DNA of 64,000 bases from Desulfomonilia bacterium (GTDB lineage: Bacteria > Desulfobacterota > Desulfomonilia > UBA1062). Location: positions 96,001 to 160,000 of the forward strand of contig JBEKDT010000002.1 in assembly GCA_050014195.1 (NCBI GenBank), written 5' to 3'. How positions within the stretch are numbered: position 1 is the first letter of the stretch; the number at the start of each line of letters is the position of its first letter. Made by a program: the position numbers and the translations under genes. The notes under the pieces were generated by a model. The model was not told the DNA's origin. It was given only the letters and a program-made list of their open reading frames with translations, and did not search any database. This document shows positions 49,397 through 54,048 of the stretch, one piece after another.

Positions 49397-50434
49397 CTAC
49401 GAGAGGATAACCGCCTCACCACCCTTAGGCCGGGACTCGATATAGCCGATGACATCAGCTGATTCTTTGAGCCCTTTCAACCTGAGCATCACATCATCCG
49501 CATCTTTGGGGGATACGACCAGCGCCATGCCGATGCCCATGTTGAAGGTCCGATACATCTCTGCACCTTCGATCTTGCCGACGTCCTGAATGAAGCGGAA
49601 TATGGGAGGGACACCCCAGGAGCCCTTCTCTATCACTGCGGACGAACGGGCAGGAAGCACTCTGGGGATGTTGTCAATAAACCCGCCTCCTGTGATATGC
49701 ACGATGCCCTTGATCTCAAATCCCCTCAGAACATTGAGCACACTCTTCACATAGATTCGTGTCGGGGTCAGGAGTTCTTCGGCTAATGTCTTTCCAACAT
49801 CTTCCAGATAATCATCAATGCGCATCTTGGCGCGCTCGAAAAGGACCTTTCTTACGAGAGAAAACCCGTTGCTGTGCAGGCCCGAGGAGTGTATCCCGAT
49901 GAGGACGTCCTTTGCAGAGATGCGAGATCCATCGATGATCTTGTCACTATCTACAACTCCAACACCGAAGCCTGCAACGTCATACTCATCCTCGCGGTAA
50001 AAACCAGGCATCTCGGCTGTCTCGCCGCCGATCAATGCACAGCCGGCTTCCTGGCATCCTCTGGTGATGCTCGATATAATGACCTTGGCACGATCCAGAT
50101 TGAGCTTGCCGGTGGCAAAATAATCGAGAAAAAACAGGGGTTGTGCCCCCACGACGATGAGGTCATTGACCACCATGGCCACAAGATCAATGCCGATACC
50201 CTCATGGTTGTCGGCCATGAATGCTATTTTCAGCTTGGTCCCCACACCATCCGTTGAGGAGACAAGGACCGGTTCGCGATAATTCCCGATATCCAATTTA
50301 AAGAGGCCGGCAAATCCGCCTATACCGCCTATGACCTCAGGCCCATGGGTGGACTTCACGCTTGACTTGATAGCCCTGACAAGAGTGTTCTGTTTATCAA
50401 TATCAACACCTGCATCACGATACGTCAAAGACAT
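49397..50434 (-). CDS. purM: phosphoribosylformylglycinamidine cyclo-ligase
   Basis: TY.DAGVDI, STDGVGTK, GGETAEMPG, SSGLHSNGFSL, HITGGG, TFNMGIG. Confidence 0.97.
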   Translation of the reverse strand: MSLTYRDAGVDIDKQNTLVRAIKSSVKSTHGPEVIGGIGGFAGLFKLDIGNYREPVLVSSTDGVGTKLKIAFMADNHEGIGIDLVAMVVNDLIVVGAQPLFFLDYFATGKLNLDRAKVIISSITRGCQEAGCALIGGETAEMPGFYREDEYDVAGFGVGVVDSDKIIDGSRISAKDVLIGIHSSGLHSNGFSLVRKVLFERAKMRIDDYLEDVGKTLAEELLTPTRIYVKSVLNVLRGFEIKGIVHITGGGFIDNIPRVLPARSSAVIEKGSWGVPPIFRFIQDVGKIEGAEMYRTFNMGIGMALVVSPKDADDVMLRLKGLKESADVIGYIESRPKGGEAVILS

Positions 50435-50516
50435 GGATACCCCCAACTTCCTACCTACTATATGAGAATATTGAGCTAGTCAATCCGCCAATGAAGGTGA
50501 TGTTTATCACTTTAAG

Positions 50517-50554
50517 AAAAAACAGGATGGCGGTTTGGGCATTGCCCGCCATCC
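50517..50554 (-). terminator. intrinsic terminator ending the putative sRNA
   Basis: Minus strand GGATGGCGG-(GCAATGCCCAAA)-CCGCCATCC-TGTTTTTT. Confidence 0.8.
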
Positions 50555-50663
50555 CTAGAGGAGGTAGTTAGGAGTTATGTGGCTTTGAAGAGGGGTTCCA
50601 ACTCTCTTCGGTTTCTAGTTTCCTTTAGTTGTTGTTATCGTAATCCCCTTATTCACCAGATGA
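50517..50663 (-). ncRNA. putative sigma54-dependent small RNA (~147 nt)
   Basis: Bounded by a consensus sigma54 promoter and an intrinsic terminator; no RBS-led ORF; AAN-rich tract, central hairpin, CU-rich anti-SD tract. Confidence 0.6.
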
Positions 50664-50673
50664 CTACCTAATC

Positions 50674-50690
50674 AGCAATGGTCGTGCCAA
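50674..50690 (-). promoter_or_regulatory. sigma54 (-24/-12) promoter
   Basis: Minus strand TTGGCACGACCATTGCT matches YTGGCACG-N4-TTGCW. Confidence 0.9.
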
Positions 50691-50787
50691 CATATCTCAT
50701 GACCATCTATCAATCTGTATTTCCAGGTTGATTTTGATAATTAGCCAAATTCTAACCCACTCAAGTGCTCACCATGAAACCTCAAGG

Positions 50788-50836
50788 TGTATATTTTATA
50801 TACAATGGAGGTATACAGTTGTATAAAAGATATACA
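50788..50836. promoter_or_regulatory. twin palindromic upstream activator sites for an NtrC-family activator
   Basis: TGTATA-TTTTA-TATACA (50788-50804) and TGTATA-AAAGA-TATACA (50820-50836), 32 bp apart, ~130-165 bp upstream of the predicted sigma54 start. Confidence 0.7.
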
Positions 50837-50893
50837 CTACCCCTTCATGGCACCATCTCTCAAACAGGGAGATTGCTTGCCGGGAGCGATGGC

Positions 50894-52684
50894 ATGAGAG
50901 TTGAAAAGCATAATCCAGGTAATTTTATGGATAATAGCGTTGGTATGTATTCCAGGAAGGCCTGGATCAAGATATCACCCTGGGTGATCATGGGCTCCCT
51001 CATCGTAATGGTACCTATCTTCATCTTTACAACTATGGAGAGTATCAGGACCCAGAGGAAGAACATGTATCACATGCTCAGTGAGAAGGGCGATGCCCTC
51101 ATGCGCTCATTTGAGGCAGGCACCAGGACGGGTATGATGGGCATAGGTTGGAGCGGGGCCCAGGTCCAGCGCCTCATCATGGAGACTTCGCAGGAGCCGG
51201 ATATCCTCTATATCCTTATAACGGATAAGGATGGGAAGATCGTTGCCCACAACAAGGTTCAGAATATCGGGAAGATGTATGGACTCGATATCGACCAGGC
51301 GCGGTTAGGTCCCATTATCAGGTGGAGGGTGCTCACCGATGATAAAGGCAGGCATGTATTCGAGGTATATCGGAGATTCCATCCTTCCCGAAGCGGGATG
51401 ATAATCCTCAGGCGCAAAACACCCCTCCATGACTGGTTCTACCCCCATATGATCCCGAAGATTGAAAGGCCCCCCATACAGACCATCTATGTGGGGCTTA
51501 ATATGGAACCCGTTGAGCAGATCATTAATGAAAACATAAAACAAAAGATCTTCCTGGCTGTGATCCTGTCGATGTATGGCCTGCTCGGGATCGTCTCCAT
51601 CGTCATTGCACAGAACTACCGGTCCACCAAGGCATCGCTGTCGCGGATCAAGGCCTTTTCAGATACGTTGGTGGACAATATGCCCATAGGGCTCATCTTC
51701 ATCGGCGAGAAAGGCCGCATAGTGACGCTCAATGATGTTTCAGAGAGACTCCTCATGATCGCGGCTTCCGAGGTAAGGGGCAAGAAGGCAAAAGACGTGC
51801 TGCCCGAACAGATCGTAAGCCTCATCGAAGATATTCATGACCCACGTGATATAGCCGTGCGAAACCTCCGTGTTCCCCTGCAGGAAAAGATCATGGTCTA
51901 TGAGGCGAGCGCGAGTTTTTTAACCGATGAAGACAATAATTTCCTTGGCCATATAGTACTCCTGCGGGATATCACCGAGATAGAGCACCTGAAGAGGGAG
52001 ATGGAGCGTAAAGAGAGGCTTGCGGCCATAGGGAGCCTTGCTGCCGGTGTGGCCCATGAAATCAGGAACCCTTTAAGCTCCATCAAGGGTTTTGCCACCT
52101 ACTTCCAGGAGCGCTACCGTGATATCCCTGAAGACCAGAGGATTGCCGGGATCATGGTAGGAGAAGTCGAACGCCTCAACCGGGCGATCAGCCAGCTCCT
52201 GGATCTCTCCCGGCCCATGGATCTGAGAATAAAGACAACCTCGCTGGTTGAGCTTCTTAATCGCTCTGTGGAAATGGTTGAAAAGCAGGCCTTAGAAAAA
52301 GGCATCACTATCGACCGTACGGGGCTTCCTCAGGATCCTTGCAATGCGGAAATAGACCCTGATAAGGTGGGCCAGGTACTGCTTAATCTTTTTCTGAATG
52401 CCTTTGAAGCCATGGAACAAGGCGGTACCCTTACGGTTTCTATCAGGTGTGATGACAAGCCAAACAGATTTATCATCCGTATCTCAGACACCGGCAATGG
52501 AATCGCACATGAAGACCTGCCTCATATATTCGACCCGTACTTCACTACCAAGCAATCCGGGACCGGCCTAGGACTTGCCATTGTCCACAAGATTATGGAG
52601 GCTCATGACGGCGACATCAAGGTGGAAAGTATACCGGGTACAGGGACGACGGTTTCCCTGAACATGCCTGCCGGAGGAGTTTGA
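50894..52684 (+). CDS. ZraS/HydH-like sensor histidine kinase (two TM, PAS, HisKA, HATPase)
   Basis: EKG.AL.RSFEAGTRTGMMG periplasmic signature; AAGVAHEIRNPLSSIKGFA; QVLLNL..NA..AM, DTG.G, PYFTTK..GTGLGL; start placed after GGGAG RBS. Confidence 0.88.
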   Translation: MRVEKHNPGNFMDNSVGMYSRKAWIKISPWVIMGSLIVMVPIFIFTTMESIRTQRKNMYHMLSEKGDALMRSFEAGTRTGMMGIGWSGAQVQRLIMETSQEPDILYILITDKDGKIVAHNKVQNIGKMYGLDIDQARLGPIIRWRVLTDDKGRHVFEVYRRFHPSRSGMIILRRKTPLHDWFYPHMIPKIERPPIQTIYVGLNMEPVEQIINENIKQKIFLAVILSMYGLLGIVSIVIAQNYRSTKASLSRIKAFSDTLVDNMPIGLIFIGEKGRIVTLNDVSERLLMIAASEVRGKKAKDVLPEQIVSLIEDIHDPRDIAVRNLRVPLQEKIMVYEASASFLTDEDNNFLGHIVLLRDITEIEHLKREMERKERLAAIGSLAAGVAHEIRNPLSSIKGFATYFQERYRDIPEDQRIAGIMVGEVERLNRAISQLLDLSRPMDLRIKTTSLVELLNRSVEMVEKQALEKGITIDRTGLPQDPCNAEIDPDKVGQVLLNLFLNAFEAMEQGGTLTVSIRCDDKPNRFIIRISDTGNGIAHEDLPHIFDPYFTTKQSGTGLGLAIVHKIMEAHDGDIKVESIPGTGTTVSLNMPAGGV

Positions 52685-54048
52685 TGATGGCAATCACGAG
52701 TAACAGAAACATATTGGTAGTGGATGATGACTTCAGCCATCGCACTATGCTCAAGACCTTGCTATCGGGATGGGGCTATGAGGTGAGTGAGGCCGACGAC
52801 GGCCAGGCAGCCGTCAATATGGTCCAGGAAAGACCTTATGACCTTATCCTTATGGACATAAGAATGGTCAAGGTGTCAGGTCTTAAGGCACTTGCAGTCG
52901 TCAAGGAGACCAACCCTGCTATCCCGGTGATCATTATGACTGCTTATTCATCGGTCGATACAGCCATCGATGCCATGAAAAAAGGGGCCTATGAATATCT
53001 GACAAAACCTCTTGACTTTGAAGAGCTGCGTTTGAAGATGGAACAGGCCATGGAACACAGCATGCTCAAAGAGGAGAACCGCCTCCTGCGCGAGCTTGTG
53101 GGTGACCGCTTCGACACCGGGAGCATTATCGGCAGAAGCCCGGCCATGATCCGGCTTCTGGAAACCACTGCCAGGGCCGCTTCCTCGGATGCAACAGTTC
53201 TCATCACCGGTGAGTCGGGGACCGGCAAGGAGATGATTGCCGGCGCCATCCACTTCAATTCTCCCCGGAAAGATCACCCTTTCATAAAGATGAACTGTGC
53301 CGCCATATCCGAAGGCCTGCTCGAATCCGAGCTGTTCGGCCATGAAAAGGGATCATTCACCGGAGCATTGCGCCGTAGAGAGGGCCGCTTCAAACAGGCC
53401 CACGGCGGCAGTCTCTTTTTGGATGAGGTCAGCGAGATGCCGCTGGCCATGCAGGTCAAACTCCTGCGTGTGCTTCAGGAAAGAGAGATCACCCGTGTCG
53501 GCGGCGAAGAGGTGATACCGGTGGACGTTAGGATCATTGCGGCGACCAACAAAGACCTCCCAACCCTTATAAAGATTGCCAGATTCAGGGAAGACCTTTA
53601 CTATCGGCTCAATGTCATCAACCTTTCCGTACCCCCGTTACGTGAGCGCGCCGAGGATATCCCCGTGCTGGCTGAACATTTTTTAAAGATGTTTGCCATC
53701 AAGAACAACAAACCCTTGAAAGGCTTCACACCACAAGCCATGGACCGGCTCATTAAACACCCGTGGCCGGGTAATGTACGCGAAATGATGAATACTGTTG
53801 AGAGCGCTGTAGTCCTATCCAGTTCAACCTTTCTTACGGACGGAGACATCCCCATCTTCAGGGATGAGTCGTACAATGCTCCCCAAGAAATAGGGGCTGC
53901 AAATGCCATCAGTCTTGATGAAATGGAGCGTCTCACCATCTTGAAAACCCTGGAGTCAGTCCAGGGCAACAAGAGCGAGGCTGCAAGAAAGCTAGGGATT
54001 ACACGGGCCACGCTTCATAAGAAGCTGAAAAAGTACTCAGTACCCTGA
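52684..54048 (+). CDS. ZraR/HydG-like sigma54-dependent response regulator
   Basis: Receiver ILVVDDD.SH..ML..LL.GWGY; GESGTGKE, ESELFGHEKGSFTGA, FREDLYYRLNV, WPGNVRE, Fis-type HTH; start may be 52687. Confidence 0.93.
   Translation: MMAITSNRNILVVDDDFSHRTMLKTLLSGWGYEVSEADDGQAAVNMVQERPYDLILMDIRMVKVSGLKALAVVKETNPAIPVIIMTAYSSVDTAIDAMKKGAYEYLTKPLDFEELRLKMEQAMEHSMLKEENRLLRELVGDRFDTGSIIGRSPAMIRLLETTARAASSDATVLITGESGTGKEMIAGAIHFNSPRKDHPFIKMNCAAISEGLLESELFGHEKGSFTGALRRREGRFKQAHGGSLFLDEVSEMPLAMQVKLLRVLQEREITRVGGEEVIPVDVRIIAATNKDLPTLIKIARFREDLYYRLNVINLSVPPLRERAEDIPVLAEHFLKMFAIKNNKPLKGFTPQAMDRLIKHPWPGNVREMMNTVESAVVLSSSTFLTDGDIPIFRDESYNAPQEIGAANAISLDEMERLTILKTLESVQGNKSEAARKLGITRATLHKKLKKYSVP

Follow-up and report, generated by a model that had tools for sequence, protein, structure and literature searches.

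What does a ZraSR-like two-component system control when no zraP gene lies beside it? The question is raised by a locus of a Desulfomonilia bacterium (assembly GCA_050014195.1, contig JBEKDT010000002.1) within a stretch of 64,000 nucleotides (nt; positions 96,001 to 160,000 of the contig), referred to here as the window, in which a sensor kinase gene and an NtrC-family regulator gene are divergent from a sigma54 promoter that precedes a predicted non-coding RNA. An earlier, sequence-only reading of the window had proposed that the target of the pair is a small RNA (sRNA) without an open reading frame (ORF) in place of zraP. The absence of an ORF was confirmed for this genome, but the RNA is not a replacement for zraP; rather, it corresponds to the 5' untranslated region (5'UTR) of a zraP-like gene joined to its 3'UTR. 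As is shown by the comparison of related genomes described below, the RNA gene appears to have arisen by loss of the coding sequence from a sigma54-driven zraP-like gene, with ~30 nt of 5'UTR being joined to the 3'UTR. The locus is thus probably a sigma54/two-component-driven, base-pairing sRNA gene born from a zraP-like mRNA, with a biogenesis resembling that of CpxQ and an origin resembling that of OxyS, a reading that is held here with somewhat more confidence than doubt. Throughout, G-numbers denote genomes and L-numbers loci; G000 is the source genome of the window, which starts at C2:96001.

Upon re-reading, the promoter, the predicted RNA start, the palindromes, the terminator and the divergent kinase/regulator pair were all located where they had been placed earlier (Table 1). 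The promoter core TGGCACGACCATTGCT (50689-50674, minus strand) was the sole match to TGGCACGNNNNTTGCW in the window, even when one mismatch was allowed, and the GC dinucleotide at 50676-50675 places the predicted RNA start near 50663. A single match to this pattern is unremarkable on its own (chance mean of 0.47, with at least one match in 37 of 100 shuffles). For perfect palindromes of this form, the chance mean was 0.08, and two were observed in 1 of 100 shuffles. The two palindromes, located 98-160 nt upstream, are the only perfect TGTATA-N5-TATACA sequences in the 4.2-Mb genome. When up to two mismatches were permitted, 144 sites were identified in the genome, among which the window pair alone lies less than 400 nt from a near-consensus sigma54 promoter, while two others adjoin weaker sigma54 promoter matches. 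With genome-unique palindromes beside its near-consensus promoter, the RNA gene is thus predicted to be the single strong target of the adjacent regulator. Furthermore, rpoN is encoded in the genome (211 bits), the window promoter is identical at 16 of 17 bases to that preceding the zraP-like gene of G006, and the palindromes are kept in ORF-less relatives, in ORF-bearing relatives and in other genera.

No credible ORF was found in the ~147 nt of the RNA, in agreement with the earlier claim that no frame led by a ribosome-binding site is present. The sole minus-strand frame of at least 20 amino acids (aa) begins inside the terminator stem, is not preceded by a Shine-Dalgarno sequence and reads through the terminator. 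A small-protein reading of the RNA was likewise rejected, as no frame is conserved; relatives have not kept the 13-codon frame that opens with GUG close to the 5' end. The terminator consists of a 10-pair stem (50555-50524) with a 12-nt loop, followed by UGUUUUUU ending at 50517; it had been overlooked by a simple terminator scan because that scan was limited to loops of 8 nt.

Table 1. Positions of the elements of the locus and of related loci (positions without a prefix refer to the window, prefixed positions to the genome indicated)
Feature	Position	Strand	Remarks
Upstream activator palindrome 1, TGTATA-N5-TATACA	50820..50836		Perfect; likely binding site of the NtrC-type regulator (predicted)
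Upstream activator palindrome 2, TGTATA-N5-TATACA	50788..50804		Perfect match
Extra half-site TGTATAC between the palindromes	50811-50817		Sequence reading
Sigma54 promoter TTGGCACGACCATTGCT, -24 GG, -12 GC	50674..50690	-	Consensus spacing TGGCAC-N5-TTGC
Predicted 147-nt non-coding RNA	50517..50663	-	Start from promoter geometry, end from terminator U-run
Variable 5' part of the RNA	50600..50663	-	First ~30 nt alignable with zraP-like 5'UTR; rest purine-/A-rich, non-conserved
Conserved CU-rich single strand including invariant CUACCUCCUCU (50567-50557), proposed seed	50556..50599	-	14/14 genus sequences
Hairpin GGAUGGCGG / CCGCCAUCC, 12-nt loop with GCCC, and U-tail	50517..50555	-	Intrinsic terminator, likely chaperone-binding end
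Sensor histidine kinase	50894..52684	+	Cache, PAS, HisKA, HATPase (Pfam)
NtrC-family sigma54-dependent response regulator	52681..54048	+	Response_reg, Sigma54_activat (E 7e-73), HTH_8 (Pfam)
purM promoter-like elements TTGACT, 15 nt, TATAGT	50457..50483	-	Downstream of the RNA terminator
purM	50434-49397	-	Gene following the terminator
Sibling RNA, ~85 nt, stand-alone	G000:C12:29684-29766	-	Same seed AACCUCCUCUU, near-identical hairpin, U-tail
Sibling copy L125	G013:C288:1629-1707		Sigma54 promoter upstream, with related palindromes/half-sites; G013 thus has two such RNAs
Sibling copy L110	G019:C40:9779-9855		Sigma54 promoter upstream, related palindrome half-sites
Second ZraP/CpxP-family gene, intact, 160 aa	G000:C22:37163-37787	+	PF13801, 32.9 bits
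Paralogue of the C22 locus, eroded ORF	G000:C2:58796-59123	-	Outside the window

The origin of the RNA is apparent from the orthologous slot in relatives. When a 271-nt region of the window was used as a BLAST query against 60 related genomes, full-length matches were obtained in two very close genomes only, while the 3' portion (~50599-50511) gave matches of 85-91% identity in another 11 genus members, giving a total of 13 of the 14 other genus genomes; the fourteenth was recovered with a sequence pattern and a covariance model. Eight of the 15 genus genomes (G001, G005, G006, G008, G009, G010, G012 and G014) were shown to carry in this slot the divergent kinase gene, the same palindromes, a near-identical sigma54 promoter, an ORF, the conserved block with its terminator (referred to here as the module) and purM. 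The encoded proteins are 155-177 aa in length and carry a signal peptide; all three that were tested matched Pfam Metal_resist PF13801 (E 6.6e-18 to 8.6e-10), and the best NCBIfam match was ZraP (29-54 bits versus a cut-off of 200), indicating that the slot protein is a member of the ZraP/CpxP/Spy family. Other genera of the window's bacterial family (L031, L033-L035, L037 and L112), including the genome Deltaproteobacteria bacterium Phox-21, show this layout as well, with a 3'UTR block whose homology can still be recognised, while the more distant locus L039 (regulator 67% identical) encodes the protein but is followed by an ordinary terminator. The stop codon of ORF-bearing relatives lies ~28-150 nt upstream of the module. 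The block therefore occupies in these relatives the position known from CpxQ, i.e. between a stop codon and an intrinsic terminator and with above-neutral conservation, while in the window the parent ORF is gone.

In the ORF-bearing loci, the operon of the kinase and the sigma54-dependent regulator faces away from a ZraP-family gene that has a sigma54 promoter, a layout corresponding to that of ZraPSR, and the description of the window pair as ZraSR-like also held: ZraS was the top NCBIfam match of the kinase (395 bits versus a cut-off of 479), and ZraR and AtoC were tied for the regulator at 528 bits, under both cut-offs (760 for ZraR). As the enterobacterial ZraS/ZraR equivalog cut-offs are reached by neither protein, and that of ZraP is not reached by the slot proteins, this is a matter of resemblance and not of membership. 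Differences from ZraPSR include the added PAS domain of the kinase and the absence of zraP from this genome; the palindrome TGTATA-N5-TATACA is a predicted binding motif derived here. As to the extent of the kinase gene, its frame is open from a GTG at 50765 and passes through the palindromes, and automatic annotation may hide the regulatory region in the gene call; the start is most likely the ATG at 50894, yielding an N-terminus (MRVEKHNP) that is shared with relatives.

The ORF is absent from the slot in the remaining seven genus genomes, i.e. the window's G000, G002, G003, G004, G007, G011 and G013. The distance from promoter to module amounts to 66-109 nt in the four ORF-less genomes measured, versus 564-696 nt in the five ORF-bearing genomes measured. 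The first 31-32 nt of the window RNA can be aligned with the 5'UTR of G008 (25 of 31 aligned positions identical) and its last ~85 nt with the ancestral zraP-like 3'UTR, while the middle shares only short, chance-like blocks with the ORF-bearing locus, and the exact deletion end-points are not definable. Between ORF-less subgroups, the 5' part could not be aligned. The lost gene does not appear to have been relocated: tblastn searches identified no close ZraP-like gene in G000 (best E 2.4e-4) or in G013, G002 and G003 (best E 1.8e-4, at most 28% identity), and no match at E 0.01 or better in G007. A divergent sigma54-driven zraP is absent from the window, with a PF13801-level gene being present at this position in 8 of 15 genus members.

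In a maximum-likelihood tree of purM and the available kinase N-terminus (17 rows, including two other-genus outgroups), the seven ORF-less genomes were all positioned on one side of one branch, such that a single change suffices, and the clade formed by these seven genomes and ORF-bearing G008 received support of 100/99. Since the outgroups possess the ORF, loss and not gain is the parsimonious direction. The comparison thereby shows, as far as can be deduced from the aligned loci, that the promoter, both palindromes and the 3'UTR block were retained through the ORF loss, the block being older than that loss.

Retention of the RNA was assessed with fourfold-degenerate sites of the neighbouring purM as a neutral yardstick. 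Between the window and ORF-less genomes, module identity was 93% for G013 (purM fourfold sites 48%), 89% for G002 (51%) and 85% for G007 (46%), while values of 81-87% versus 40-48% were obtained for ORF-bearing G008, G009, G012, G006 and G014. The conserved block is sharply delimited, as neither the 5' part of the RNA nor the stretch between the terminator and the purM promoter is conserved. Invariant in all 14 aligned genus sequences are the 11-mer CUACCUCCUCU, the hairpin arms and part of the loop; of the 10 hairpin pairs, 8 show no change in any of the 14. All seven ORF-less genomes have kept the promoter and both palindromes, and the kinase and regulator genes are intact in the window, indicating that the locus does not behave as a decaying scar. 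These comparisons support the view that the RNA is under selection. The sequence-only reading had listed an AAN-rich tract, a hairpin with GGA in its loop, a CU-rich tract and a terminator, all of which are present; the latter two are conserved, but the AAN tract and GGA loop reside in the non-conserved 5' part, and the suggestion of Hfq or CsrA sponging that had been attached to them was not sustained, the conserved element being a CU-rich, anti-Shine-Dalgarno-like stretch. Similarly, the anticipated conservation of promoter, seed and terminator across regions divergent from orthologous kinase genes was observed, but not the anticipated lack of an ORF, which is present in 8 of 15 genomes.

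The module is not confined to this slot. The pattern ACCTCCTCT-N2-4-GGATGGCG was searched in 122 genomes of the class and found in 41, all belonging to the window's family (40 of the 51 others), with none among the 70 genomes of the sister family; a reversed-pattern control produced 2 matches. A covariance model, R1, built from 39 module copies recovered the module in 44 of the 52 family genomes, representing 10 of 14 genera, with 1-5 matches per genome at E 0.01 or better, of which the weaker ones carry a different hairpin. The invariance of the seed and of part of both hairpin arms in the 39 copies is partly by construction, as these were required by the search pattern and extraction; the loop GCCC, required by neither, was present in 39 of 39 family copies. 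Apparent modules outside the family were found in four genomes of the phylum (within 8 of 401 matching), and the three inspected (all but G334) were rejected as coding-sequence coincidences without a hairpin or U-run. The Rfam search that had been suggested earlier matched no family: a permissive search of 49800-51400 returned only a chance snoRNA match (E 2.6), and nothing overlapped the module at four sibling loci.

Three contexts of the module were distinguished, i.e. the zraP-like 3'UTR, a sigma54-driven stand-alone form (the window, G013:C288 and G019:C40) and a syntenic stand-alone form of ~85 nt with a different promoter. The last of these, exemplified by the C12 copy in the source genome, begins with a conserved UGCAUCCUUUU...GCAUCAAAA element, has no Rfam match and retains its gene neighbourhood in several genera, where it follows an amidohydrolase-like or Cys-rich gene. 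In the sigma54-driven siblings L125 and L110, the promoter lies 74-88 nt before the module (74 nt in G019). The G019 copy adjoins a divergent kinase gene whose product is 48% identical to the window kinase, and may represent an independent ORF loss, provided that the locus is orthologous. At one further locus (L013, G014:C61:10692-11000), two identical module copies were observed 227 nt apart with an N run between them, representing either a scaffolding artefact or a real tandem duplication.

Under the base-pairing reading, the locus would constitute a Zra-like module for envelope or metal stress, with the ~147-nt RNA as its sole strong predicted target in the genome. The kinase would sense a periplasmic signal and cause phosphorylation of the regulator, which would bind the palindromes and activate sigma54 RNA polymerase, and the resulting RNA would end at the intrinsic terminator. 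Its accessible, anti-Shine-Dalgarno-like pyrimidine seed would pair with purine-rich ribosome-binding regions and thereby repress translation of target mRNAs, with Hfq probably occupying the terminator and U-tail. Sister species would liberate this RNA from the 3' end of their zraP-like mRNA, in the manner of CpxQ and cpxP. The sequence features expected of a base-pairing sRNA, namely a conserved accessible seed and a Rho-independent terminator with a U-tail, are predicted to be present: the seed has a mean unpaired probability of 0.79 (range 0.48-0.99) and is thus largely single-stranded, in contrast to the hairpin, which is invariably paired. The seed furthermore shares ACCUCCU with the 3' tail of the organism's own 16S rRNA, and would consequently pair with Shine-Dalgarno regions. 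Hfq, CsrA and an RNase E/G homologue are encoded in the genome. A scan for the complement of the 11-mer identified 77 sites with at most one mismatch, 22 of which precede an ORF of at least 50 aa. RNAduplex ranking over 3,829 crude ORF calls produced long, implausible duplexes; the purM 5' region was ranked high (-29.1 versus -19.0 kcal/mol for shuffled seeds), a result that is regarded as unproven.

Several observations weigh against this reading. No perfect site for the 11-mer complement was found at any ribosome-binding region, no distinct set of targets stood out in the scans, and enrichment of signal-peptide-like products among the ranked targets was weak and not robust (24 of the top 100 versus 620 of 3,729, p = 0.04 uncorrected; p = 0.23 for the top 25). 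A seed that matches the anti-Shine-Dalgarno core would pair with most ribosome-binding sites, which leaves specificity unexplained. In a simple terminator, an invariant stem and a conserved loop GCCC would not usually be expected; they may instead reflect a sequence-specific protein partner. None of the 10 hairpin pairs co-varies, such that the structure is backed only by thermodynamics and sequence invariance; the hairpin upstream of the terminator in the window RNA is not conserved, the consensus fold being restricted to the terminator hairpin, and for the RNA as a whole, no excess of folding stability over shuffled sequence was found (z = -0.37). In the tree, monophyly of the ORF-less group is weakly supported (57/42).

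Protein-encoding orthologous loci had been named beforehand as a sign that the locus is a zraP deletion scar, in which the ORF was lost and the promoter fires into the old terminator, its function being only to stop transcription before purM. Such loci do occur, in 8 of 15 genus genomes and in other genera, and the RNA 5' part is indeed not conserved among ORF-less genomes. The scar implication nevertheless appears very improbable, as the block was conserved while the ORF was present and also once it was gone: among ORF-less lineages, module identity amounts to 85-93%, against 46-51% at purM fourfold sites, and the promoter with both palindromes persists in every one of them. A terminator moreover requires structure only, yet the stem, the loop GCCC and the 11-nt single strand are invariant in sequence, and stand-alone, independently transcribed (predicted) sibling copies exist. 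Conservation prior to ORF loss could also be attributed to a cis-acting 3'UTR element, in which the CU-rich tract tunes translation or stability by pairing with the Shine-Dalgarno sequence on the same zraP-like mRNA, leaving a slow-decaying relic where the ORF is gone. Pairing between 3'UTR and 5'UTR in the Staphylococcus icaR mRNA provides a precedent. A further one is the autoregulation described for the 3'UTR-derived sRNAs OppZ and CarZ (PMC7398697). Consistent with such a role, the block always trails a ZraP-family ORF in ORF-bearing genomes, similar CU-rich blocks with a hairpin follow two other ZraP-family loci in the genome, and the seed is complementary to the canonical Shine-Dalgarno sequence; a degenerate ancestral AAGGGGA in the window RNA could still pair with it. 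The high identity retained after ORF loss, together with the ORF-less siblings that possess their own promoters, two of the sigma54 type with related palindromes, is hard to reconcile with a cis role alone, which is therefore considered unlikely as the full explanation. Cis and trans roles are compatible and not mutually exclusive.

It is also conceivable that the RNA binds protein rather than mRNA, with the invariant hairpin and loop, or the 5' GGA motifs, titrating CsrA, Hfq or another protein. Invariance of stem and loop without co-variation is a typical mark of sequence-specific recognition, the genome has both csrA and hfq, and the window RNA contains four GGA triplets. These triplets are, however, situated in the non-conserved 5' part, except for a single conserved GGA that is buried in the stem, and the longest invariant single strand is pyrimidine-rich and not of the CsrA type, rendering a protein-binding or sponge function distinctly unlikely. 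In most genus members, purM follows at a distance of ~80 nt in the same orientation, which would fit a sigma54-controlled leader or attenuator, in which terminator read-through couples purine synthesis to the sensor. This alternative, already voiced in the sequence-only reading, is disfavoured to the point of being extremely improbable: purM is preceded by promoter-like elements of its own, downstream of the terminator, which are preserved in relatives irrespective of the upstream content; another gene intervenes between module and purM in G010 and in the genus of L033-L035; the module occurs at many loci unrelated to purM; and the terminator is strong (10 pairs and a U-run), with no conserved anti-terminator fold.

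A more far-reaching proposal, which can be put forward only tentatively, is that in this Desulfomonilia family the RNA tail, and not ZraP, represents the essential Zra-like output, ORFs being shed while the RNA is kept, so as to form a multi-copy family of anti-Shine-Dalgarno mimics that acts as a general brake on translation initiation. The ORF would then have been shed once in the window clade, in a second ZraP-family paralogue of the genome and, perhaps independently, in genus g6, and the RNA would serve as a stress-triggered brake on strongly Shine-Dalgarno-dependent (envelope) mRNAs.

As a separate observation, the weaker R1 matches in the source genome follow two other ZraP-family loci that have a CpxR-box-like motif in common in their promoter regions. 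The intact gene at C22 carries the CU-rich motifs AACCUCCUC and CCCCCUCUU in its 3'UTR, followed by a different hairpin, and its promoter region contains TTTACAAATATTTAC, which reads GTAAA-N5-GTAAA on the other strand, an arrangement that we take to be the CpxR-box form. In its paralogue at C2, the middle of the ORF was lost, leaving a remnant frame of 48 aa without a signal peptide; the promoter motif and start region persist, as do the final ~40 codons and the CU-rich 3' block. This locus may be a second chaperone gene eroding towards an RNA gene, suggesting that the same erosion pattern recurs in this genome.

The closest parallels to the base-pairing reading are provided by CpxQ, for its mode of action, and OxyS, for its origin. 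CpxQ is described as an sRNA cut from the 3'UTR of the cpxP mRNA in Escherichia coli and Salmonella (PMC4817254). As in that description, an envelope-stress two-component system acts mainly on the parent gene, which belongs to the CpxP/Spy/ZraP superfamily of periplasmic chaperones, the RNA corresponds to the stretch from stop codon to intrinsic terminator, and one transcript would yield two effectors (here as judged from sequence). The driver is different, i.e. sigma54 with an NtrC-type regulator instead of the CpxR with sigma70 described for CpxQ. The two RNAs are not alike in sequence (no Rfam match), and the seed here is CU-rich and resembles the anti-Shine-Dalgarno sequence. Processing and Hfq dependence are at present predicted, and the protein half was discarded in the window clade. 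OxyS, in turn, is reported to have replaced a peroxidase gene that lay divergent from oxyR, to derive from its 3' end and to have stayed in the OxyR regulon (PMC8825220). Here, too, a protein gene divergent from its regulator was replaced in one lineage by an sRNA from its 3' end with the terminator, and the RNA would remain in the parental regulon, as judged from the retained promoter and palindromes. Unlike for OxyS, both states occur within one genus, and their promoters, 5'UTRs and 3'UTRs can be aligned. OxyS is described as having taken ~65 nt of coding sequence, while the part kept here consists entirely of 3'UTR, which was under conservation already prior to the loss; sibling copies exist elsewhere in the genome. 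To our knowledge, the birth of bacterial sRNA genes has been documented in very few cases, OxyS being the clearest. A different route, by gain of an internal promoter, is described for UhpU (PMC12704781).

Sigma54 and two-component control of sRNAs has precedents in GlmY (GlrKR), Qrr (LuxO) and CrcZ (CbrAB). GlmY and CrcZ act as protein decoys, a mechanism that differs from the base-pairing proposed here. Qrr1 is reportedly controlled by two enhancer-binding proteins (PMC10162802). In Desulfovibrio vulgaris, Dv_sRNA2 is listed as an sRNA target of response regulator DVU0679 (PMC3333781). These RNAs share with the window RNA that the direct output is an sRNA gene beside regulator genes, but they bear no sequence or structural relation to it (no Rfam match). 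We know of no indication that GlmY, Qrr, CrcZ or Dv_sRNA2 descends from the 3'UTR of a protein-coding gene. No description of sRNAs in Desulfomonilia was found in the literature, and the titles and abstract beginnings retrieved for zraP, sigma54 and small RNA did not suggest a zraP-derived sRNA.

If the base-pairing reading is correct, the locus would represent a second, cleaner case of sRNA birth, in a distant phylum, with promoter, regulator sites, 5'UTR and 3'UTR being alignable between both states. It would extend the CpxP-CpxQ idea, in which a chaperone and an sRNA arise from one stress transcript, to the ZraP branch and to sigma54 control, and define an undescribed sRNA family in a poorly known, uncultured lineage. 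It also suggests that, for two-component systems without a nearby protein target, a search for orphaned 3'UTR RNAs may be worthwhile. Should the RNA tail indeed be the essential output, the genus would offer a natural set of genomes in which the emergence of an sRNA gene from an mRNA can be compared before and after the event.

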